A stretch of DNA of 64,000 bases from Yuukianura sp. NJ FZ-2021 (lineage: Eukaryota). This document shows, in pieces, positions 3,025 to 63,510 of the stretch. The notes beneath the pieces are model-generated. The model did no database searches. It was not told where the DNA came from and saw nothing but the letters and a program-made list of their open reading frames with translations. A program made the translations under genes and the position numbers. Positions within the stretch are counted from its first letter, which is position 1. Each line of letters begins with the position of its first letter. The stretch lies in NCBI GenBank assembly GCA_046563655.1, contig CM102289.1, positions 7,564,001 to 7,628,000 of the forward strand, written 5' to 3'.

Positions 3025-6000
3025 TTATTGTTCAAGGAGTTTCTGCATGGCGTTAAGGCTTGCTTCAAGCGCCGTTGCAAATTTAATTGTTGATGTGATT
3101 GGAGATGACTTGAATGAGGAGAGACAGAAGATGATTGATTCTTCCATGGGATTGTATGAAGCTCCATATCCATTCGGCACCACAGGTCCGTAGCCCATGA
3201 ACTGATTTTCTTTTGTTGGTAACTTTTCAAAAAAATAGTTTTTAAACAAAAACTTAAAATTTTGGTTTTGGTGCTTCAGGACTTACCTGGCTGGTTGAGA
3301 GAGCAAAGTAGTTGGCAATTGCAAACGTTTCATCTTGAAAAAGTTTTGGAACTTCTATGCCCATTTCAATTGCCTGTTCTTTGAGTCCTAGCAAATGAAT
3401 GTCAATTCCTTCTCCAGTGATGTTTTCAACCATAATCGTCGTTTGCTTTTCTACGGCTGCGTGGAATTTCCGGATTTGTTCGGTAGAGTCCGTTGTACTT
3501 GCGGTTTTGTGCATAGATTTGACCCAGTCGAGAGCTTCAATTGTGGTGGATCGGATGCAGTCTACGCGTCCAAGTTTGTAGCGACGTGTCGAGGCACTCT
3601 CGTAGGTAGCAACCATATTTTGGTGTATACTGCACGTAATCAAGGAAAAAGTAAAGCTGAAAAAGTAATTTTTAATTTTTTTGAAACAATTTTTGAAAAA
3701 ATTACCTATAATATGTAAGTTGCAAAGCAAGTTGAATGTAAACGTCTGGACTAACGCGACATTTTTTGATAAAGTTTTTCCCATAGCCGTCGTAGCGATA
3801 GACGGCCAAATCCAGATCGTGAATTAGACTGCAACGCAAAATGGAAAAAAAAAGTTCAATTTTGAAATTTGGAGATTGAAATTTCGAATTCAACACCGTC
3901 TATCCAATTTGTCATTTTTCTGTAAATTTTAATTTCCATTAGTTTAGTTGTTTCGCACCTGTCAATCGTAGATGCTGCTTTTGCAATAGCTTCTCTCGCT
4001 TCATTATTCAGAACCCACTCTAAACGAATCGGTTTTGAAATTTCTTCGCTCGATTTTCTCGTTTTTTCGACGTCATTCGATGTTTCTGTTTTAGTATCGG
4101 CCGACTCCCTGACAGACCGAATAAATTCGTCCACCAAGTTCAGAATTCCGATGCCCTCAGCAGTGGAATGTTCATAGCACAGGCCAATCGCACCGTCGGA
4201 CGATACGATAAACTAAATTCGAAAAACAAAGGAATTATAAAAAAAGGTTGATGCTTCAGTTTAGTTTTTAGTAAGAAGATTCGTTTTTGTATAACCTGCA
4301 TCGTTTTATCAAACCATCTATTGGGCGTGTTATAGTTACTCCCTCCGCCATGAATCATTTGATGCAACATGCTAGTTTCATCTCTTCCATTTTCCTGAAT
4401 CCTTAAACAATTTTTTCTAGTTGGTTTTAGCTTGCTATTGAACTGTTGAGCCGGAATGGGTTCATCGAGACAGACAATGAAGTGACAAGTTTCTATTTCC
4501 TCCAATGATTGTTTATTTACTTCCTCTAAAATGTTAAAATTTTTACAAGAAATTAAAGAAATTGACGAAATGAAGACCTAATTGTACCTGAGAACAAAAT
4601 TATGAGTGAAAATTACATACCTTCTAGTAAAATTTTTCGTGCGGCGGCCCAAACTCGTCTATCTTGAGTCGTAAGAACTCCCACAGGCTCTTCACTGTCA
4701 GCCGCTTCCAGGTCAACGATGGCTTGAAACTGACTAGCAATTTCAGATATTGTAAGACGCCTATTCACAGTTCGAATTGGACAACTAAAAAACTAAAAAC
4801 AGTTCTTGTTTTACTTTTTCCAAAGATTTCAAAATGTGTAGCTTTTGCCATTTTGCTCAAGTATGTGGATGATCATATCTTACATGTTTGCGGTATGCAA
4901 CGATGATATGATCTACAAGTGACATTGAAGTATCTCGTTGGTGATCTTTTGGAATTCCTGGTACACGATATGTACTCATGAGGCGGTAGTGTTGAGCCAT
5001 ACACAGTGGTTGACCTGGCTCCCTGCTAGCAGCTTTCTCCACTGGAATTTCATTTCTAAAAAAAAGTTCATAAAATTTTATTTACGAAAAAGTTTTCATT
5101 TAAAACAATGAACAAAAATCAACTATTTAAATCTTCAACCCGAACATTTTTACAAAGTTTTTAGGAATAAACTTGGTTGATCAAACTCAATTTTTGCTGT
5201 GGGAGCATAGAAAATTTGGGTTCCAGGAGTTTTCCTATTTTTAGTTTTGCTAATTTGAAAATCTTTTCAGTTATTCTATGAATGCCGAAATCTTTCAGGT
5301 GCCAATTAATTAACTCAAAATTTGGAATTCGAAGAAAAGTTTTCTCCGAGATTTTCGTTTTCCTTGAAATGAAGTTTTAGAACAAAAAGCAGGATGTGAA
5401 AATACCGACTTTCTTCCGTGAGAAGAACTCCCGGGAGATTTAAATGTAAATCCAAGACGAGGAGAAATAAGATCTCGTTTGTGCCGAAAAGACTCGGAAG
5501 ATCTTTGCATAAGAATAAGTTGACATAATCAGATTAGTAACTTTGGGAAGATTCCTGGACGTGTTGCGTAGGGAGAGACCGAGAATTTGTCATTGTCTCC
5601 CAGAAACAAAAGATTTCCTGCTACTTTTAGTAGATTTTATCCAATTCCAGAAGGAGCCTAACTCGAGTTTTCTGTATTCCTGGGATACCTCATCCTCCAC
5701 CGGGAAATTCAAAGATCCCGAAGTATAAGATGCAAAAGGGGGAAGAAATTGTAGATTCACCGGGACGAATCGGAAAGAGTTCCCGTGGGAATTGGGCTTA
5801 AGATCACTTCAGCCTAAGCCTCAGCTTTCTCCTCCTAACAAACCGAACTCCTAACCCTAACTTTCTCCATTCCCTACGCTAGGCTAGGTTACTAACATAA
5901 CCTTTCGACCTCACAACCAGTCGAAATGGATTAGACTGTTCCCTCTTCAGCTTCTGGGAAATGGGGATCAGCAAGTCCCCCGCCAAAAGTCAAATTGGAC

Positions 6001-22497: not shown

Positions 22498-24282
22498 CTA
22501 ATTGGACCTAAATGGGTTCCCACCTTCTCCGCCCCCACCCGATGGCGGCATATTTTTGAACGGGTTGAAAGTATTTTGATCTGAACTATTGGAATAGTTA
22601 GGTTGGGCGTGGTGTTGCGCCTGTGTGTAGTGGGAACTAGTACTGGAAGGCCCATTGGCTTTGATTGTATTAATTTCTCGATCACTAATACTCGTTTCCT
22701 TGAACGTCACCCGCTGACCCCCACCTCCCCCGCCCCCAAACTCATCTTCATCATCTTCTGCTCCCAGTCTTCCATATTTCTTGGAATAGTCAGGAACTAC
22801 TTTCCGATCCTGCATGGCATACGTTTGATAAGTTTTGTCTGGTGGATCCTTCATCATAATGTTAGCTTCATCCATGAAGCCTTTGTCATAGATGTGACGG
22901 AGCATGAACAGAAGAGGGACATAGGCTAAGTTAGTCACTGCAATGATGATATTTAGTCCTAGAAATCCTACTGATTCAATTACTCTTCCAGCAATTACCG
23001 GTCCAAATGCATATGCAAACGAGTAGGAAATGTCTGCAATGGCATAGATACTTCCATAAACGGAAACATACCGTAAGTCAACCAAGTAGCCCAGAGTAGG
23101 AAGCAGGGCCGTATCGACCAGAGCAATGCCAAAACAAATTCCTGAAATGGGAATGATGAGAACCCAATAGGATTTGGCAAAGGGGACCATAAGGGAACAG
23201 ACCCCTTCAAGGGCCAGTCCTGCTCCGGCAATAATCCACTGATACTGGGGATACTGCGCAGCAGTTCTCACGGTCACGACGACTCCAAGTACATGTGGAA
23301 AGAACGCTGGAAACCAAATCATGCCTTGTTGCCACTGTGTTGCATTCATTGTATCCATCATCCAGACACTAATTGTAGGTTCCAGGAATGCTAGAGAGAC
23401 GTTGGCCATAATAAGGGCTCCGGAACAAACGGCAATGTAAGGGTCCATGAACAGGACCCATATGGGGGTACCCTTAGGATGCTGAATTCCTTGCTCTTTT
23501 TGCTGTTTCTTGATGGGTCTCATCACAAGCCAGAGCATGATGCCGTCAATGAGGCAAACGAGAGACAAAATTAAAAATGGAACTTCTTTTCCCGCCATTT
23601 CGTACATGAGACCTCCGAATGGTGGCGCCACTAGACAGCCAAATGAAATGAAGGCAAGGGCTATGCCAAGGGCTTTGGATCTCTCAGCTTCTTCTGTATA
23701 AACTGAAGCTATCATGGCCAGTCCAGAAGTGTCAGCAAATGCTGATCCCACCCCTTGAAGACTTCGGGCAAAAAATAAGACGCTATAAGATGAACCAATG
23801 GCAAAAACGGCTGTTGAGAAGAACATAATTGTTAAACCAATCATCATCGGTTTGTCGTAGCCAATTCGATCAATTAATGCCCCCGAAAATGGATTAATCA
23901 TCAACTGAATCATGGCTTTCGATGCAAATAGAACTCCAATTGCAGCATCTTCCCCCTCATAAACTGTTACACCATTGATGAGTTTAGTTTTTCTAGATCC
24001 TTCTGTGTAAGTAAAATTCCCAGTTGAATTTGTAAATGTTATGGTTCTCGATGGTTCAGTAACGGCTTCTCCTCCTTCCAAATGTGTTTCCCATGAACCG
24101 ATCCTGCGCAGATAGTCGGGTATAATCGGAACAATGACCATGTAGAGCATGTTGTCCAACAATAAAGCAATTGCGACTATGACCAAAACCAATTTTTTCT
24201 GGGCCGTTTGATCTTCCAGTTTAGTCAAAATGAAATCCTTGACCTCCGCGATCTCCAAATTCAAAATAGGAACTTGCGGCAT
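22498..24282 (-). CDS. VAChT: vesicular acetylcholine transporter (SLC18A3, MFS), single coding exon
   Basis: 594-aa uninterrupted ORF with ALLLDNMLYMVIVPIIP, FASKAM.QL..NPFSG..IDRIGY, ARSLQGVGSAFADTSG, YVSVYGSIYAIADISYS. Lies upstream of the ChAT coding exons on the same strand. Confidence 0.97.
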   Translation of the reverse strand: MPQVPILNLEIAEVKDFILTKLEDQTAQKKLVLVIVAIALLLDNMLYMVIVPIIPDYLRRIGSWETHLEGGEAVTEPSRTITFTNSTGNFTYTEGSRKTKLINGVTVYEGEDAAIGVLFASKAMIQLMINPFSGALIDRIGYDKPMMIGLTIMFFSTAVFAIGSSYSVLFFARSLQGVGSAFADTSGLAMIASVYTEEAERSKALGIALAFISFGCLVAPPFGGLMYEMAGKEVPFLILSLVCLIDGIMLWLVMRPIKKQQKEQGIQHPKGTPIWVLFMDPYIAVCSGALIMANVSLAFLEPTISVWMMDTMNATQWQQGMIWFPAFFPHVLGVVVTVRTAAQYPQYQWIIAGAGLALEGVCSLMVPFAKSYWVLIIPISGICFGIALVDTALLPTLGYLVDLRYVSVYGSIYAIADISYSFAYAFGPVIAGRVIESVGFLGLNIIIAVTNLAYVPLLFMLRHIYDKGFMDEANIMMKDPPDKTYQTYAMQDRKVVPDYSKKYGRLGAEDDEDEFGGGGGGGQRVTFKETSISDREINTIKANGPSSTSSHYTQAQHHAQPNYSNSSDQNTFNPFKNMPPSGGGGEGGNPFRSN

Positions 24283-34960: not shown

Positions 34961-35561
34961 TCAGCACGGTACGCTCCGGCCCGGTTGTGCTAGCTGCGTT
35001 TCTTCAGTCTCAGATTGCTCAGCTGCGATTGCGCCGATTCTCGTAGTGCAAAATGGACATCGAGCTGCCTGTTTGGAAATAATACTGGTGCATTCCGGAC
35101 ATGGCCGATTGAGGGCTTCGTGTGCTCTCGTGAAAGTGTCAAAAACCCACTCTGATGGAACAACCACAACGTAGTAGAGGATGAACGCCGTAAGCACAAA
35201 GGCAAACAGAGCGTCGACGAAGGCGCCGTACCGGAACTCGCTGTGATTTATAGTGAATGAGTACGAGGTAAAGTTCGGTTGTGTTCCAAAAACTCCGAGA
35301 ATCGGTGTGATGAGACCCGTTGTAAAAGATGTTACTAAATTTGAAAAAGATGCTCCAATAACTACTGCAACTGCCAACTGGATCAAGTTCCCGCGAAATA
35401 GAAACTCGCGAAATCCTTGCATCTAAATTCAAAAATTCAAAATTAGAGTAAGAAGTCAATAGTTTACGTGTTTTTGAAAGAAATTGAAAATTTACCTTTA
35501 GTTTTTTAGCGACAGTTGCTAGATGCAACTTGGTATTGGCGTCTTTGATCATGGAATTCAT
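34961..35561 (-). CDS. mscL: large-conductance mechanosensitive channel MscL, bacterial type, with C-terminal CxxC-x10-CxxC motif; two exons
   Basis: Exon 2 35422-34961: FREFLFRGNLIQLAVAVVIGASFSNLVTSFT..LITP, TM2 YGAFVDALFAFVLTAFILYYVVVVP, tail CPEC-x10-CPFC. Its ATG directly follows TTTTGAATTTAG. Donor AAG|GTAAAT at 35495. Exon 1 35561-35496 adds 22 in-frame codons. AATAAA at 34747-34742. Confidence 0.88.
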
Positions 35562-51010: not shown

Positions 51011-51625
51011 TTAGCAGAAGATGATACGCAGTCCAGGATTTCCAGGTCGGCAGTCCCTCATTCCCGCTTGGTCGTCTTTGGACCACGAATAAACCCCGGG
51101 GCAATATCTCTTAATAGCGTCCGAGTACGGGGTTGGTGCATCCCTGTTGAGACTTTGACAAGCTACAAACAATCCCTTATTGTACACTCTGTTTTCTCCA
51201 GGACAGGCATTAAGATCGAAAAAGCAACTGGGAGTGTTGCAATTTCCACCGGCATTGGGGTTGTAAGGTTCCATGGTTACTGGAATATTGTAACCATCAA
51301 CCATGCTGATGTCGAACCAATTCCAACCATCCAGGTCCCAGCCGAACTCTGCTAAGCTGACAGTACCTTCCCAAGTATCGCAATTTCCGCCGCCAGCATC
51401 ACATCCCATGTGAGCCCATACCCTGCTACGGTGAGATCCTGGTCCACCTCGGTTTACACCAATGGCTCCGCTCGTTTGTCCCCTGCCAAGCCAAAAGTGA
51501 CCGGAATTAATGAATTCGCTTTTGACGTAAATATCCCACTGGCAGTTGTTACGAATAGTGACTTCTTCGGCTAATATTTCCAGTAGAAGTGCAGAGAGAA
51601 CGGAGACTACAATGATCAATTTCAT
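51011..51625 (-). CDS. secreted thaumatin-like (PR-5) protein, 10 Cys, intronless
   Basis: Signal peptide, TIRNNC, SRVWAHMGC, VSLAEF, WFDISMVDGYNIPV, CPGVYSWSKDD, terminal IIFC. TCAGT at ~51665, AATAAA at 51004-50999. Confidence 0.92.
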   Translation of the reverse strand: MKLIIVVSVLSALLLEILAEEVTIRNNCQWDIYVKSEFINSGHFWLGRGQTSGAIGVNRGGPGSHRSRVWAHMGCDAGGGNCDTWEGTVSLAEFGWDLDGWNWFDISMVDGYNIPVTMEPYNPNAGGNCNTPSCFFDLNACPGENRVYNKGLFVACQSLNRDAPTPYSDAIKRYCPGVYSWSKDDQAGMRDCRPGNPGLRIIFC

Positions 51626-53093: not shown

Positions 53094-54055
53094 ATGAAGC
53101 TTTTCCTTGCTTTTCTCTTGATTGCTGGAGCAGCAGGTAATAATCCTAAGCAGTTGCTAATCGAGAGAGTGCCGCTCCACTCCGAGCAGTAATAAAACCC
53201 AAGTGGGGCTCCGCTCGCGAGCAAAGAGCGGACCGCTTTTATCTTCGCTCTCAAAGGAGCGGGTGCTCTCTCAATTTGCAGCAACTGAGATCCTAAGAAT
53301 TCAGAAAATAACGATTGATTATTTTTTTTGTAGCAAAATACGAGGGACCCACAAACCAAGCAGGTCTAGACTTGATCAAGTATTTTGAAGGATTTTACCC
53401 CGACTTCTACACTGATCCCGTTGGCATCACAACCATTGGTTATGGGCATGCCTGTCACGTCAACGATTGCTCAGTGCCACTAAACGGGAAGTACTGGGTA
53501 CCGCTAACCCTAGCTGATGGTGAATCTCTGTTACAAGATGACCTTGCAAGCGGATATGAGGATTGTGTCGCAAATTATGTTACATACAGTGGCTTAAATG
53601 CTGACCAGTTCTCAGCTCTTGTCTCGTTCACTTTTAACCTCGGCTGTGGAAGTTTGCAAACTTCGTCTCTCGTTGACTATCTAAACGCTGGAGATGTTCA
53701 AAGAGCATCAACCGAATTTGGGCGATGGGTGTATGCTGGAGGAGATATCTTACCTGGCCTCGTGACAAGGCGAGCGGAAGAAAATATCTTATTTTGCAAA
53801 GGCACTTGCATTGAGTATTGTACTGGCACAACTACTGATCCTTTGAACATGAGAACACAACCAGACACTACTGCCCCAGTTGTAGCGACTATACCTGCAG
53901 GTTGGACTATCATCATTACTGGAAGAGTGCAAGGAGACGTAATCAACGGTAACAGTAACTGGTTCAAGCTGCAGTATGGAAGTTCAACTGGATATGTTTC
54001 GGCTTACTATGCTAACATGAAGCACAATAATGGACAGTCCTACTGCGCCAAATAA
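53094..54055 (+). CDS. secreted GH24 (phage-type) lysozyme with C-terminal bacterial SH3 (SH3b) domain
   Basis: Exon 53094-53136 (MKLFLAFLLIAGAA), intron 53137-53333, exon 53334-54055. LIKYFEG..YTDPVGITTIGYGH (E-x8-D-x5-T intact), QFSALVSFTFNLG, GLVTRRAEE, then LNMRTQP..WFKLQY..GYVSAYY. TATATAAA at 53030. Confidence 0.92.
53151..53289. mobile_element. ~140-bp MITE in the lysozyme intron, hAT-like 8-bp direct repeat
   Basis: CAGTTGCT..GAGAGAG..CCGCTCC mirrored by GGAGCGG..CTCTCTC..AGCAACTG. ATCCTAAG at 53143-53150 and 53290-53297. Confidence 0.75.
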
Positions 54056-58354: not shown

Positions 58355-58495
58355 TTGAGTTTCAAGATTTTGAAACTTTTTGAGTAGACAGAGATGGAAT
58401 AAGCATTTGAATCAAAACCTCAACTTTTTAGAAATGTGAAAGTAATGATAGACTTATTGGCCTACCTCAATTTTCCCCGTTTTCTTCCATTTCTT
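58355..58495 (+). repeat. left copy of the 141-bp direct repeat flanking the LINE (right copy 62746-62886)
   Basis: TTGAGT..GAGTAGACAGAGATGGAATAAGC..CCATTTCTT. By eye the copies differ at one base near the start. Confidence 0.92.
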
Positions 58496-58864
58496 CCATA
58501 AAAAGGAAATAAAACCAATAGTACAACTCACGGTTACTTTTTATTGAACATTTGGAACATGAAAAAATAAGTTAATGGACTTTGGTCAACAATTCAACTC
58601 AACTTAACTCAACAATTTACTGGAAATACTGGGAACATTGGAAACCACCATACAACAATCAGTGACTACGGATACAACAGCTGATCAGAGACAAGTGACT
58701 GCCTGATTGCATAGTCAGTTCTTGCTCTCTGCGGAATCAACAGACTTATCAATTACAGATACGTTTATGACTAATACGTCAAAAACAAATCCAGTATTGG
58801 TACCATGAAATACTGCCAAATTATTTTCTAACTTACAGATTACCAATTAACAATATTAGCACTG

Positions 58865-59608
58865 ATGAGCTCAAACCAACCAGCCAAAACAAGAGGAACG
58901 AAACGGAAATCCGAATTAGAAATTTCGCAATCAACCAAAGTTACCAAAATGACAGAAGCAGATCTAGCTCCTGTACTGGCCGCCATCAACAAACTGAGCG
59001 ACAGAATGGACCGCAATCACATTGAGCTTACGAACCAAATACAGTCAATCAAGACAGATATCACGACACTCCAAACCAAAGTGAATGAAGTAGAGGCCAC
59101 CAACAAACAGATCAGTCACCACCTAAGTAGTCACGACCGTGAGATCGAAACGATTCTAATCAACTTGAATAAATCAAACCTCATACTACACGGGCTACAA
59201 CACTCTGCGGGAGAGTCAACCGAATCGATTACTGCTCAAATAAAAGAGATTCTGCAAAATTCGCTACAAATTGACCTCACTAGCGAAATTCAGCATGCTC
59301 ACCGTCTGGGTCGACCCACCGCTCAAAATCCAAACAAACCAATTAAAATAATGTTCAAATCGCTGGACACCAGGAATACTGTCTGGAGAAATCGAATGCG
59401 TGTCAAACAATCATTTCCAACTCTCAGCATCAATCAAGATCTCCCACCTGTCACCAGGAAAAAGTTAGCAGCCAAACGACAGAACCTAACTAACAATGCT
59501 GACGAACAAAACAGCCCCAACGTCAACACTCCAGCCCAGAATACGACATTCGCTCGAAACCCCGGCTTCGCACGCAGCAGTATGACCCCACGATCACCGC
59601 CATTGTGA
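58865..59608 (+). CDS. LINE ORF1 (coiled coil + RRM-like)
   Basis: Heptad-rich N-terminal half, then NLILHGL, AHRLGR, KPIKIMF, INQDLP motifs typical of L1/L2/CR1 ORF1 proteins. Confidence 0.85.
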   Translation: MSSNQPAKTRGTKRKSELEISQSTKVTKMTEADLAPVLAAINKLSDRMDRNHIELTNQIQSIKTDITTLQTKVNEVEATNKQISHHLSSHDREIETILINLNKSNLILHGLQHSAGESTESITAQIKEILQNSLQIDLTSEIQHAHRLGRPTAQNPNKPIKIMFKSLDTRNTVWRNRMRVKQSFPTLSINQDLPPVTRKKLAAKRQNLTNNADEQNSPNVNTPAQNTTFARNPGFARSSMTPRSPPL

Positions 59609-62466
59609 CAACCAGCTACCACACCACGTCAAAAGGTCAAGTATGAGCTTACCATAGCTCAATTGAACATTCGCTCCTATTCAAAAAAATTCCCCGAAGT
59701 GTGTGATCTACTAAATATTCAAAATATCGACATCCTATGCTTATGTGAAACCTGGCTTACACCAAGCGTCACGGCAATCGTTCCTCCCGGATACTCCATG
59801 TACAGAAACGATCGAATTCACAAAAGAGGAGGAGGAGTGTGCATAATTGTAAAAAACTTGTTCAAAATTCTAAAAATTTCAAAATCAACGCCAGGCCCAG
59901 ATCACCACATCGAACATATTACAATCAAACTACAGATCAATTTCAACAAAAGCATAACAGTTACATGCCTGTATCGGCCACCAGCAAGATCCGGAACTCT
60001 AATCAGAAACGACATTTCATTCATTTGTAAACTAATTCAAGAAATAAACGAGACAAATTGCTCATCTTACATGGCTGGAGACTTTAATTTTCTTCCCGGT
60101 AGTGAGTACAACGATTTCAAACGCTCCTTCCAGATTCATTCCATCAGTCAACTAGTCACAATACCAACACGTGGTCAAAACATATTAGACTTATTTCTCA
60201 CTAACAATAGTTCAGAGGTGGCAACATGCGATGTAATCGACTGTGACTTATCTGACCATTCTCTCGTTCTCGCAAAAATCAAATCACAACGAATTCAAGT
60301 GGAGCCGAAACAAATTCAATACAGAAACTTTGCAAACATAAACATGGAGAAATTAGCTACACAAGTTATTTTGATCCCAGACACCACAGGAATAAATGAC
60401 CTTGATTCCAAATTGTCTCACTTCAAGTCATCTCTGGTTAGCGTATTCTCCAGCCTAGCACCTACGAAAACAAAATTCATACGAGAAAACCGGTTAAATT
60501 GCTACTTATCCGAACGTACCCGTGACCTCATCAAAAAGAAGAACAACCTCATAAAGAACGACCGAAATTCGTTATTCTATGTACAAAAACTAAAAGCAAT
60601 GAAACGACTCGTTCAAACTGCAGTGAAACGAGAGACAACAAACTATTTTAACGATCTAACCAACAGGAATGGAATCCACGATGCAGTCAATAGATTTTGT
60701 AAACTAACAAAGAAAAAATCAAACCCACCAGCACCAACAATAGACGCAGAAGAAATCAACAACTATTTAATACAAATCAGTACCAAATCAACTGCGTCAA
60801 CACTCTATGAAAAACCGGTTAGCATCTTGACACCTCCTGAGGCAATATCATTCAAAATCAACAGCTACGATGTCATCAAAGCATGGAAAGCTGCAAAAAA
60901 GAAGAAATCAAAATCGATGGACACAATGGAAGTATGTCCGTACATGATCGAGCTTACACTTCGGGCACCGAATATTCTGGATAGCATCACGGACATTATT
61001 AATGAAAGTTTTCGCAAGGGCTATGTCCCTGAACCTCTAAAATTAGCCAAAGTGATTCCATTGCCAAAATGTGACAATCCAAAATCTGCCAGTGAATTTC
61101 GCCCAATCTCCATCCTTCCTGTCGTCTCAAAAATAATGGAAAAATGTGCATTTGAAAAAATAACGCATCATCTTACTAAGTACAACCTCCTCCACCAAAA
61201 CCAATTCGGTTTTCGGAAAGGTCACTCCACTACGCAGGCGCAGATTGCACTTACAGACTTACTCTACAACTCATTTCACCAAAATAAAATCTGTGCAGTG
61301 GTAACATTGGATCTAACCAAAGCCTTCGACACAGTAGACCGCGAAACTTTGATACACAAAACAAAATGGTATGGACTCGAGAACCAGTGGCTCCAATCCT
61401 ACTTATCGTGTCGCAAACAATATGTACTCAGCCAGAACAAAAAGTCGACAACACAGGAATTCACTTTAGGAACTCCGCAAGGTGGAATTTTGTCGCCACT
61501 TCTCTTCAGCATTATGGTGAATGACTTGCTCTCGTCTTTCAATCAACTTTTTCCTGAAATTTTGATCATGTTTGCGGACGACAACTCCATCATCATCAAG
61601 GGCGACCCCAACTTACTGTTCCAGTTTAAGTCTGATGTAGAAAAATGTGTAAATTTTGTGATACAATGGATGAAATCAAATCTCCTCTACATAAACAAAA
61701 GGAAAACTTCAATTCTACTGTGCGCAAAACCCAAAATTCTCCAGAGCATTGGGCAAATTACATTTGACATTGATGGTGAACAAACAGCAACAGTGAATTC
61801 GTTAAAAACTCTTGGACTGACGATCGATTCTCAACTCAGATGGGACACTCATATAAACACAGTTGCAAAACGGTGTTTTGGCATCATCGCTTCTCTCTAT
61901 CCACTTCAACGCTACCTCGACTTAATCAACCGAAAAATCCTGATGGAGTCATACGTACTCTCAAAAGTCACGTACATGTCAGAAATTTGGGGACAAAGTA
62001 AAAAGAAATACCTCAAACCAATGGAAAAAGTGATAAGATCTGCAGGAGATTCACTTTAAGCGTCAAAAAGTTCGATCATGTCAAGCTAGAAATTACTAAG
62101 AAGTTACAATGGCTATTCCCTAAGCATCTAACCGATTACCGGCGTCTACTTCTAGCAAAAGGAATAGTTGCTATGAATTGTCCAAAATACTTCGAGGGGT
62201 ACTTCGACGAGATAGAATCACGCAAAAAGAAAATCGTCACCAGAAAACATACACACACCAGCGTCATGCCAAACAGCGCTAATCATCCGCTCTCCTTCAA
62301 AACATCTGCAGTCAGCAAATGGGAAAACTTACCAGAAGATCTCAAAAATGAAGCGAACTCGCATAAGTTCAAAGTAAAGATTAAGAAGTACTTCCTCACA
62401 AAACAGGAAATGGAAGCGGAAGCCAAGGAAAATTCAGACGATCATCACCTCTCAGAGCAAGATTAA
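59609..62466 (+). CDS. LINE ORF2 (AP endonuclease + reverse transcriptase), one frameshift near 62047
   Basis: LNIRS, LCETWL, GGGV, YRPP, GDFN, LDL, SDH (endonuclease); FRPISILP, QFGFR, LDLTKAFDTV, GTPQGGILSPLLF, FADD (RT). After ~62047 the protein continues in another frame (RFTLSVKKFDHV..LQWL) to the stop at 62466. Confidence 0.9.
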
Positions 62467-63510
62467 AAGCAATTACAATAAACAATAATTTTATACCTAG
62501 ATAATTCGTAAACATACAACTACATTCCCATACCTCATAGCATTTATAACTCAATTTATCTTAACAAACACACCCGAAAACCAGCAATTTTAAACTAGTA
62601 CACATAATTTTTCTTAACCATCACCCGATAACAGTAGCAACGTAATAATCTCATAATTTTGTAAAACATTTATTCCGAAAAACCTGCGCATTTAGTAGGA
62701 GAATAAATTATTGAATTGAATTGAATTGAATTGAATTGAATTGAATTGAGTTGCAAGATTTTGAAACTTTTTGAGTAGACAGAGATGGAATAAGCATTTG
62801 AATCAAAACCTCAACTTTTTAGAAATGTGAAAGTAATGATAGACTTATTGGCCTACCTCAATTTTCCCCGTTTTCTTCCATTTCTTAGAAACCGCTATCG
62901 TGTACGTGCCCTTTTGGAAGAAAATCCTGTTCAAATCCCTGATTTTCAAAATCCTGTCTTATTAAGTCAATGTCTAAGGTAGAAGAACTTGACTCCTTCG
63001 AATAGTAATTTGTTATCCACTCGTGCCATTTTTTTCGGTTTTCAAAAAAAAATCCACAAAACTTTTATTTTTACCACTAGTTTATTTTAGTGCATTTTAT
63101 GGCAGTTTCTACTTTTATTTCAACGTATTGACATTTACATTCAAGTTTTTATGCTGGAATTATTTCTCATCTCATTCCATCTCATCTCATTTCAAAAAAA
63201 AGTTTTTTGCATAAATTTTTTCTTCCAAAAAATTGAAAATTTTCATAAGAATTCGATTGACCTATGGAATTTCGATGCCAGACAGTATTAGGTGAAAATT
63301 TGAAAGAAAAAAATGTTTACAAGTTAAATTTGTGGTAAAAAGAAAGCTTCAGGGAACCATTGCGCATCTGAACAGAATAAATTCTAAATAAATTTTGTTG
63401 TTAGAAGAAACAAAAAGTTTAAAATTCAGAAAACGAATTGAAAAGTGCAAAGTTGGGGTGAACAAATTGGAAAAACGGAGGTTTTAGGTGTCAATAAATT
63501 TTGAAAATGT

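Follow-up and report, generated by a model that had tools for sequence, protein, structure and literature searches.

How ORF2 is translated from the bicistronic RNA of LINEs is a long-standing open question. For ORF2, the available text of two reviews names stop–start coupling, reinitiation, IRES and 2A skipping, without readthrough (PMC3894237; PMC5972666). Among APE-type non-LTR elements, stop–start coupling in SART1 (UAAUG) and 2A ribosome skipping yield ORF2p from the same RNA (PMC3894237), and in mammalian L1 an unconventional route yields ORF2 at very low levels (PMC5972666, PMC5009743, PMC2241872). Gag-Pol readthrough, which operates in retroviruses and some Ty1/copia elements (VdLTRE5, Tca2), relies on structural/RNA-binding and enzymatic ORFs that lie in one frame with one stop between them, and the leakiness of that stop sets the ratio of the products. 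The UAG-pseudoknot readthrough of murine leukaemia virus is a further comparison. VdLTRE5 has the organisation gag-UGA-pol, and in the available text both VdLTRE5 and Tca2 are without CARYYA (PMC3441728). This hexamer defines the tobamovirus-type (type I) signal, in which it directly follows the stop and an ORF continues in the same frame. In human cells UGA with CARYYA gave about 15% readthrough, all six bases of the hexamer mattered, and with it UGA and UAG were similar, both far above UAA, according to the accessible part of that study (PMC4132726).

The element described here was found in a 64,000-nt stretch of springtail DNA, the whole of which is referred to as the window. Comparison of the element with the window by blastn revealed a target-site duplication around a LINE that has a 3' repeat tail and no LTRs (Table 1). 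An apurinic-type endonuclease is followed by a reverse transcriptase within one ORF, as in APE-type LINEs. The insertion is young, since the two copies of the duplication differ at a single position and there is only one stop in 1064 codons. An altered genetic code was ruled out, given the arthropod host and this single stop. The length of the target duplication is unusual.

Table 1. Coordinates of the LINE and of the features around its ORF1–ORF2 junction (positions within the window).
Feature	Position	Strand	Remarks
5' target-site duplication copy	58355..58495	+	pairs with 62746–62886, 140/141 identical (blastn, element against window)
Non-LTR retrotransposon (LINE)	58496..62745	+	4250 bp, between target duplications (blastn)
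ORF1	58865..59605	+	247 codons; type II as in L1, with coiled coil, RRM-like domain, a single helix and a disordered tail
TGA, ORF1 terminator	59606..59608	+	sole stop between ORF1 and ORF2
CAACCA hexamer	59609..59614	+	fits CARYYA readthrough hexamer
ORF2, main part	59609..62056	+	816 codons, ORF1 frame, no start codon ahead of endonuclease core
Small hairpin	59644..59661	+	6-bp stem, 6-nt loop; starts 35 nt past stop; weak
In-frame AUA	59654..59656	+	flanked as ACC AUA G; could serve as a weak non-AUG start (inferred role), 4 codons 5' of catalytic Asn
First in-frame ATG past stop	59798..59800	+	ORF2 codon 64, downstream of Asn20 and Glu47
ORF2, C-terminal part	62002..62466	+	−1 frame, 154 codons
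Frameshift interval	62026..62047	+	one-base frameshift breaking ORF2 (blastx)
(ATTGA)n tail	62710..62749	+	8 units, read directly; last 4 bases are also the start of the duplicated flank
3' target-site duplication copy	62746..62886	+	blastn, partner of 58355–58495

Within the window the element is present as a single copy, blastn and tblastn returning only the self-match, and a loci search with ORF2 alone in one DNA collection (genome_contigs) did not detect a second copy of the family. The protein collection contained no exact match to ORF1, to ORF2 read from the first ATG or to three host proteins, and a search of the ESM Atlas gave no closer family. A protein search spanning the junction revealed 25 matches, all distant (25–41% identity) and aligned from the endonuclease onward; relatives carry Exo_endo_phos_2. 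On a quick RT tree of 95 rows, built without named reference elements, the element occupies a long branch (1.67) in no supported clade.

ORF1 is of type II (L1-like) and is related to L1 ORF1p. Its profile A1 matches human LINE-1 ORF1p (2ykp, E = 1.9e-11), and the best Foldseek match of its AF2 model (pLDDT 85.7) is 2yko (E = 1e-7, TM 0.52/0.62); Pfam gave no match on ORF1. The model comprises a helix (31–101), a beta/alpha domain (105–191), a further helix (195–215) and disorder from about residue 216, and the C-terminal domain looks reduced, since just one helix follows the RRM. Type II ORF1 has been reported in L1, CR1, L2 and R1 (PMC4120745). Altogether 530 relatives of ORF1 were found, and the best 150 have a median length of 280 aa; none of these 150 reaches 1000 aa, and the five that reach 500 aa are without EN/RT. 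When these five were set aside (n = 145), the projected stop of the relatives fell at a median codon of 259 (IQR 243–303), versus 248 in the window element. A search for longer proteins with ORF1 revealed no fused ORF1-EN-RT form, which is weak evidence. Relatives of ORF1 that stand alone stop at the corresponding position, and the best 150 are never fused to EN-RT; the TGA is the native ORF1 terminator, rather than a random nonsense mutation.

Positions 59600–59614 read CCA TTG TGA CAA CCA. The frame opened by the ORF1 ATG (58865) contains a single stop, at 59606, and is then open until 62056; the spacer between ORF1 and ORF2 is zero, and translation past the stop begins QPATTPRQKVKYELTIAQLNIRS. 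The sequence-only reading had pointed to this stop, to the CARYYA fit of the hexamer behind it and to the continuation of the same frame into the endonuclease, all of which are read directly, and it had called the stop context leaky, in agreement with the readthrough-prone behaviour of UGA with CARYYA measured in human cells (PMC4132726). As in type I signals, CARYYA lies directly 3' of the stop, behind which the same frame is open for 816 codons. The tobamovirus signal belongs to a plant virus and has CAAUUA, whereas the candidate signal of this arthropod LINE has CAACCA. Scanning the element for CARYYA gave 29 matches in 4245 positions overall and 6 in the 1064 in-frame codon positions, with 0.0038 per position expected from base composition; on the basis of those element and in-frame frequencies, the chance of meeting it behind any given stop is about 0.4–0.6%. 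That ORF2 shares the frame of ORF1 has a chance of 1 in 3. An A-rich context 5' of the stop favours readthrough in yeast; the bases just 5' of this stop are UUG, not A-rich. Folding against shuffled sequences gave no convincing strong RNA structure downstream of the TGA: z was −0.82 for the 120 nt after the stop, and the 80- and 120-nt windows were ordinary. The small hairpin had z = −1.69, a stability matched by 10 of 200 shuffles, and in a scan of the element by 50-nt windows it ranks in the most stable 3–4%.

The junction differs from the described LINE arrangements. Like the window element, mammalian L1 has an L1-like ORF1p and in-frame stops between ORF1 and ORF2; however, in L1 a spacer of 60–63 nt with two stops in frame separates the ORFs and ORF2 has its own AUG (PMC2241872), while the window element has a single stop and zero spacer, and the first in-frame ATG of its ORF2 is codon 64. 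This absence of an L1-type spacer and start codon is compatible with an L1-type mechanism, because that mechanism is AUG-independent. Instead of the UAAUG or AUGA with downstream structure that defines SART1-type coupling, the junction has UUG UGA CAA and the weak hairpin 35 nt downstream. A 2A site would be D(V/I)ExNPGP just 5' of the endonuclease in one ORF; here a stop intervenes and the ORF1 tail has RNPGF, thus NPGF and not NPGP, and the element is without the 2A motif. Three distant relatives carry NPGP directly ahead of the endonuclease.

In ORF2, Pfam identified Exo_endo_phos at aa 18–217 (about nt 59660–60259, E = 1.2e-8) and RVT_1 at aa 491–739 (about nt 61079–61825, E = 6e-35). The catalytic Asn20 and Glu47 and the A-D-D triplet 656–658 sit in invariant alignment columns, Asn20 and Glu47 being unchanged in all 17 ORF2 relatives that were aligned. 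The in-frame ATGs near the junction are those at 59582 (8 codons 5' of the stop) and 59798, with none in between. The first in-frame Met therefore lies inside the endonuclease past its first conserved motifs, as the sequence-only reading had stated, and no AUG can start the whole endonuclease, because this ATG comes after Asn20 and Glu47. Homology of the relatives begins at ORF2 residues 6–12, and the only codons ahead of it that differ from AUG by one base are two AAG codons. Among the distant ORF2 relatives, 23 of 25 begin with Met. An out-of-frame ATG is present at 59643. Further downstream, blastx showed that four proteins (P0002, P0005, P0009 and P0016) follow the ORF2 frame to 61975–61996 and then the −1 frame from 62026–62101 to their C-termini. 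Because of this frameshift, the window copy is not itself a working master.

An in-frame stop between ORF1 and ORF2 was also found in ten of the loci fetched with the ORF2 alignment A3, a set outside which there are 462 further relatives. In these loci (L009, L010, L014, L019, L020, L023, L036, L040, L073 and also L034) the stop is TAG and, as in the window element, ORF1 is followed by a single in-frame stop, no spacer and an ORF2 without a conserved start codon. The base after the stop is G in 9 of 10 loci, GGC occupies positions +7 to +9 in all 10, and synonymous positions are invariant, while DNA identity among the five loci compared is 39–64%. A conserved Cys motif precedes any ATG, the first of which is at codon 16–99 or absent. 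Since this distant clade keeps the stop and the following bases without a conserved ATG, in-frame-stop junctions are maintained in LINEs, and ten diverged loci provide the comparative material that is lacking for the single window copy. However, ORF1 in the TAG clade is of the esterase + CCHC type, and in the window element it is L1-like; the junction is UAG-G with a conserved GGC...GCC, a candidate hairpin, 6 nt downstream, compared to UGA-CARYYA; and the distance from stop to endonuclease is about 100–220 codons in the nine-locus clade and 25 in L034, versus 20 in the window element. On the quick RT tree, where the window element is on a long branch, the TAG clade is not its sister. The clade thus only raises the prior for readthrough, since it is no close kin of the window element and has a different stop and context.

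The sequence-only reading had proposed programmed readthrough yielding an ORF1p–ORF2p fusion. We consider this the best-supported reading, at about even probability and not proven; it is favoured by the native stop, the lack of an AUG for a complete endonuclease, the leaky context and the in-frame-stop junction kept in the distant LINE clade, and weakened by the frameshift of the copy and by the rival of L1-like, AUG-independent reinitiation. A rare fusion is possible because ORF1 and ORF2 share a frame and are split only by a stop in a leaky context. The LINE mRNA would be translated from the ORF1 AUG, and most ribosomes would terminate at UGA 59606, giving an L1-like, trimer-forming RNA-binding ORF1p. 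A few, owing to the leakiness of UGA with CAACCA, would decode UGA with a near-cognate tRNA and enter the endonuclease–RT frame, producing an ORF1p–ORF2p fusion of roughly 1200 residues whose linker would consist of the disordered ORF1 tail and about 12 residues. As in Gag-Pol systems, leakiness would set the ratio of the products, with much ORF1p and little ORF2p, and the ORF1 coiled coil would hold the fused ORF2p on its own RNP in the way that Gag-Pol is bound to Gag. Gag-Pol elements are LTR elements whose protease cuts the fusion, whereas a LINE has no protease, and its fusion would therefore act uncut. Trace ORF2p suffices, since L1 constructs with premature ORF2 stops still mobilised Alu, for which the authors, in the text available, invoke readthrough (PMC4176336). 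We infer readthrough on the RNA of the window element, an active fusion and a family-wide junction of this kind. Against readthrough, a second copy of the family is absent from the window, the protein sets and genome_contigs, and in L028 and L064, the two fetched relatives that share the ORF1 type, ORF2 lies in another frame, overlapping ORF1 by 82 nt in one and lying 299 nt further on in the other, and has an ATG of its own. Further points against it are the Met start of most distant ORF2 relatives, the lack of convincing RNA structure 3' of the stop and the UUG, not A-rich, 5' of it.

The main rival, which we regard as rather unlikely, is AUG-independent reinitiation within a few codons after the UGA, as proposed for mammalian L1, possibly with the near-cognate AUA 59654 as a weak start; ORF1p and ORF2p would then be separate, and the match in frame and that to CARYYA would be coincidental. 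For L1 ORF2, reviews set out an unconventional route that needs no AUG (PMC5009743, PMC5972666), and for SART1 they report stop–start coupling (PMC3894237; PMC5972666); in human and rat L1, where the ORFs are likewise in frame, the available text reports that an ORF1–ORF2 fusion was not seen (PMC2241872). The AUA is in a strong Kozak-like context and is covered by the small hairpin. However, reinitiation needs two coincidences, of frame (1 in 3) and of CARYYA (about 0.5%), the junction has no overlapping stop–start (UAAUG, AUGA), and a start at the AUA would leave 3 residues ahead of the catalytic Asn, compared to at least 9 in relatives, whose homology begins at residues 6–12. Reinitiation following a long ORF1 is moreover judged improbable in one of the reviews (PMC3894237).

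It is quite unlikely, in our estimation, that the junction is private to a decayed copy, with the active family having an ordinary ORF2 start, lost here by a point change in the ATG or by a small insertion or deletion that altered the ORF2 frame close to the out-of-frame ATG 59643, or else one fused ORF hit by a nonsense mutation. The window copy does carry at least one real disabling frameshift, one mismatch per 141 bp would permit some ten or more substitutions across 4250 bp, and Met starts most of the distant ORF2 relatives. Yet about 4% of random nonsense mutations in a ~1200-codon frame would hit its ~45-codon linker, the TGA stands where ORF1 relatives end, and fused ORF1-EN-RT forms were found neither among the best 150 ORF1 relatives nor in the search for longer proteins, the latter being weak evidence. 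At this age, the loss of a particular ATG and an indel within a particular 9-nt stretch each have a probability below about 1%, and with either of them the CARYYA match remains a separate coincidence. Translation of ORF2 from AUG 59798, the sole in-frame AUG on offer, or from a separate transcript would yield a short ORF2p without endonuclease activity, making the element non-autonomous or endonuclease-independent; this is very improbable, since such a product drops the invariant Asn20 and Glu47, the AUG context is weak, and the clean 141-bp duplication and repeat tail are marks of an endonuclease-made insertion.

A literature search for LINEs with ORF1–ORF2 readthrough or a single in-frame stop found none within its coverage, which takes in few of the subscription journals and leaves absence from print unproven. 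We tentatively suggest, at somewhat less than even probability, that readthrough is an undescribed LINE route to an ORF1p–ORF2p fusion that has arisen at least twice, in the springtail element with UGA-CARYYA and in the clade with UAG-G and GGC...GCC. With a bare leaky stop, no spacer and no AUG, the question of ORF2 translation becomes testable with about 100 nt of sequence. The springtail LINE may produce its enzyme as part of a rare fusion, akin to retroviral Gag-Pol; if the fusion is real, LINE biology would join the logic of Gag-Pol, with a hint as to how ORF2p stays with its own RNA, and the loading of ORF2p on its own RNP through the ORF1p coiled coil would provide a physical basis for cis-preference.

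The LINE in the window is new and belongs to a general type already known; it is complete and ends in eight ATTGA units, and a second copy was found within the window at neither the DNA nor the protein level. An apurinic-type endonuclease occupies ORF2 residues 18–217 and a reverse transcriptase residues 491–739. LINE target-site duplications are usually short, and the 141 bp seen here (137–141 bp if the four bases common to the tail are allowed for) is far above that, which implies widely staggered nicks at insertion. The leader (58496–58864, 369 nt) contains several short upstream ATG-initiated ORFs, e.g., one of 8 codons from ATG 58805, which would be unexpected if plain scanning from the 5′ end of the element reached ORF1.

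Coordinates of the features in the window and of the in-frame TAG codons in distant LINE loci
Feature	Position	Strand	Remarks
Non-LTR retrotransposon, complete	58496–62745 (4250 bp)	+	bounded by direct duplication
Target-site duplication copies	58355–58495 and 62746–62886		141 bp, 140/141 identical
ORF1	ATG 58865 to TGA 59606–59608	+	247 codons
ORF2 frame (same as ORF1)	open past TGA to 62056	+	816 codons
ORF2 end in −1 frame	62002–62466	+	last ~140 codons still align to relatives' C-termini
Vesicular acetylcholine transporter ORF	22501–24282	−	intron-less, 594 aa
MscL ORF, bacterial-type family	34964–35422	−	E = 6e-26
Thaumatin-family ORF	51014–51625	−	
Phage-type lysozyme with bacterial SH3 domain	53312–54052	+	E = 3e-37
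TAG between ORF1 and ORF2 (locus:position)	L009:2214, L010:2568, L014:2573, L019:2250, L020:2192, L023:2410, L036:2268, L040:2337, L073:1806, L034:292		

The host is a springtail-kind arthropod: the acetylcholine transporter ORF shares 76% identity with its Allacma fusca counterpart, further matches reach up to 85%, and the proteins of the window themselves are absent from the collection searched. The standard genetic code therefore applies. Putative acyltransferase-like exons, recognised by eye at 3254–4577, lie on the same (−) strand as the transporter ORF, which is upstream of them; together they may represent the classical nested cholinergic locus. Three intact ORFs (MscL, lysozyme, and thaumatin-family) are located among ordinary animal genes, the first two being candidates for horizontally acquired springtail genes.

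Four relatives are collinear with the ORF2 frame to 61975–61996 and continue in the −1 frame from 62026–62101 to their C-termini, so a one-base frameshift is placed at about 62026–62047. The ORF1-ORF2 frame contains no stop codon besides the TGA. In view of the single duplication mismatch and this frameshift, the insertion is young, but its decay has begun.

An exhaustive HMMER search revealed 530 relatives of ORF1 at E ≤ 0.001. Among the best 150 of them, the median length is 280 aa, none reaches 1000 aa, and five reach 500 aa, with no endonuclease or reverse transcriptase found in these five; an ORF1 search limited to longer proteins, which is weak evidence, found no fused ORF1-endonuclease-reverse transcriptase form. 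With the five long proteins set aside (n = 145), the relatives' C-termini projected onto ORF1 fall at a median codon of 259 (interquartile range 243–303), versus 248 here. A profile built from ORF1 plus 40 relatives matches human LINE-1 ORF1p (2ykp) with E = 1.9e-11. In the AlphaFold model of ORF1 (pLDDT 85.7), a helix of 70 residues is followed by an RRM-like domain, one more helix, and a tail disordered from about residue 216; the top Foldseek match of this model is the L1 ORF1p trimer. The TGA is thus the native end of a genuine type II ORF1, at its usual place, and its origin by a random nonsense mutation within a once-fused ORF is very unlikely. A NADAR domain is present at the C-terminus of three L1-like ORF1 relatives (P0051, P0160, and P0170; Pfam E = 1e-25 to 4e-30); this ORF1 architecture is not known to have been described.

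The sequence-only reading had proposed an ORF1-ORF2 fusion made by programmed UGA readthrough, and the bases on which it relied, CCA TTG TGA CAA CCA, were confirmed by direct reading, CAACCA fitting the tobamovirus-type hexamer CARYYA. Its statement that no AUG serves the whole endonuclease also holds: in-frame ATGs flank the stop at 59582 on its 5′ side and at 59798 (ORF2 codon 64) on its 3′ side, with none between. Homology of ORF2 to its relatives starts 6–12 residues past the stop, so that ribosomes have to be in this frame by the first dozen codons, a stretch where two AAG codons are the only one-base variants of AUG. At 59654, an AUA (context ACC AUA G) lies only four codons ahead of the catalytic Asn, where relatives have at least nine residues. 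The junction contains no overlapping stop-start, a 2A motif is absent from the ORF1 tail, which reads NPGF rather than NPGP, and the 120 nt 3′ of the stop show no notable RNA structure (z = −0.82), a weak 6-bp hairpin at 59644–59661 starting 35 nt from the stop (z = −1.69, 10 of 200 shuffles). Given no usable AUG, stop-start or 2A, and RNA of this kind, only readthrough or AUG-independent restart is left.

Readthrough accounts at once for four features: the common frame, the lack of a spacer, the lack of an AUG, and the hexamer. In the element, 29 of 4245 positions carry CARYYA, as do 6 of the 1064 codon positions in frame, so that its presence right after the stop is a 0.4–0.6% chance event, and the two ORFs would share a frame by chance in 1 of 3 cases. 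According to the accessible text of PMC4132726, UGA with CARYYA yields about 15% readthrough in human cells, where all six bases matter and UGA resembles UAG, both far above UAA. The accessible part of PMC4176336 describes low-level Alu mobilisation by L1 constructs with premature ORF2 stops, ascribed to readthrough; therefore, traces of ORF2p suffice. AUG-independent reinitiation, of the kind proposed for L1, would reduce frame and hexamer to coincidences (about 1 in 600 jointly) and is unlikely. L1 is a negative precedent for readthrough, no ORF1-ORF2 fusion being seen for human or rat L1 in the accessible text of PMC2241872. Like the window element, these L1s have in-frame stops between ORF1 and ORF2, but they differ in a 60–63-nt spacer, two stops, and an AUG (PMC2241872, same text).

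Still less likely is a private change that makes the junction of this copy non-representative: the copy already carries a frameshift and has begun to decay, but an additional rare event would be required in an insertion this young. A short ORF2p initiated at AUG 59798 is highly improbable, since a codon-64 start yields a protein without Asn20 and Glu47 of the endonuclease core, both invariant in 17 of 17 aligned relatives. Four points stand against readthrough: the junction is known from a single copy of the family, this copy is damaged, no stimulatory structure is apparent, and L1 is a negative precedent. We consider programmed readthrough of the UGA about evenly balanced between right and wrong.

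A search with an ORF2 alignment in a bacterial and archaeal genome collection gave 601 candidate stretches and confirmed 542 relatives; 80 of these, representing 79 loci, were retained. All 542 stretches, with animal-type LINE ORF2, belong to records whose titles name bacterial or archaeal MAGs and are evidently mis-binned eukaryotic DNA. Junctions were compared in the 33 of these 79 loci that include the endonuclease start. In five, ORF2 is preceded in its own frame by a long ORF, with one stop and no spacer between them; in eight, the preceding ORF lies in another frame, with an overlap or a spacer; in the remaining 20, the 700 nt upstream contain no ORF of 100 codons, short contigs explaining some. 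Type II ORF1 was found in only two of the 33 (L028 and L064), both in a different frame from ORF2, and therefore the window geometry is not general for type II ORF1.

In 10 of the 79 loci, a motif scan detected a CCHC knuckle with a stop only a few codons downstream; in eight of these, the frame is open over at least 600 codons ahead of the stop and at least 880 beyond it. All ten stops are TAG, followed by G in nine cases, with GGC at +7 to +9 in 10/10 and GCC at +16 to +18 in 9/9 main-clade loci, third-codon positions being invariant; DNA identity around the junction is 39–64% (five of the loci measured). The protein is conserved from the first codons after TAG (x-x-G-x-x-A, then a Cys motif in 9/10), and the first in-frame ATG lies at codon 16 to 99 or is absent, the Cys motif preceding any ATG. 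Over the 45 codons after TAG, five close pairs give pN/pS values of 0.41–0.93; the saturation of sites makes this a weak test. RNAalifold predicted a 4-bp hairpin at the junction, whose pairs never vary and hence give no covariation support. The ORF1 of two tested loci contains a GDSL-esterase domain. On a quick reverse transcriptase tree, nine TAG loci form one clade (SH-aLRT 99) with sister sequences without the junction, L034 falls elsewhere, and the window element is a long, unplaced branch.

These patterns read as at least one LINE lineage maintaining an in-frame stop and translating through or from it, probably by programmed readthrough, of which no description for this clade was found in the literature searched. 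The clade raises the prior for readthrough in the window element, but its stop and context are others, and the two cases are independent. A review on how ORF2 is produced (PMC3894237) names coupling, reinitiation, IRES, and 2A as routes and does not include readthrough. A 2A-like NPGP lies shortly ahead of the endonuclease in 3 of 25 distant ORF2 relatives (P0004, P0013, and P0023), resembling the 2A motifs described for some APE-type non-LTR elements; judged by sequence, related elements thus place several different recoding devices at this one site.

The literature searched, mostly outside subscription journals, yielded no description of ORF1-ORF2 readthrough in a LINE or of a LINE whose two ORFs are split by one in-frame stop. 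About 100 nt of sequence is enough for a direct test of the readthrough claim. If the junction works as inferred, it would be a known recoding device that is, as far as this literature goes, new to LINEs.
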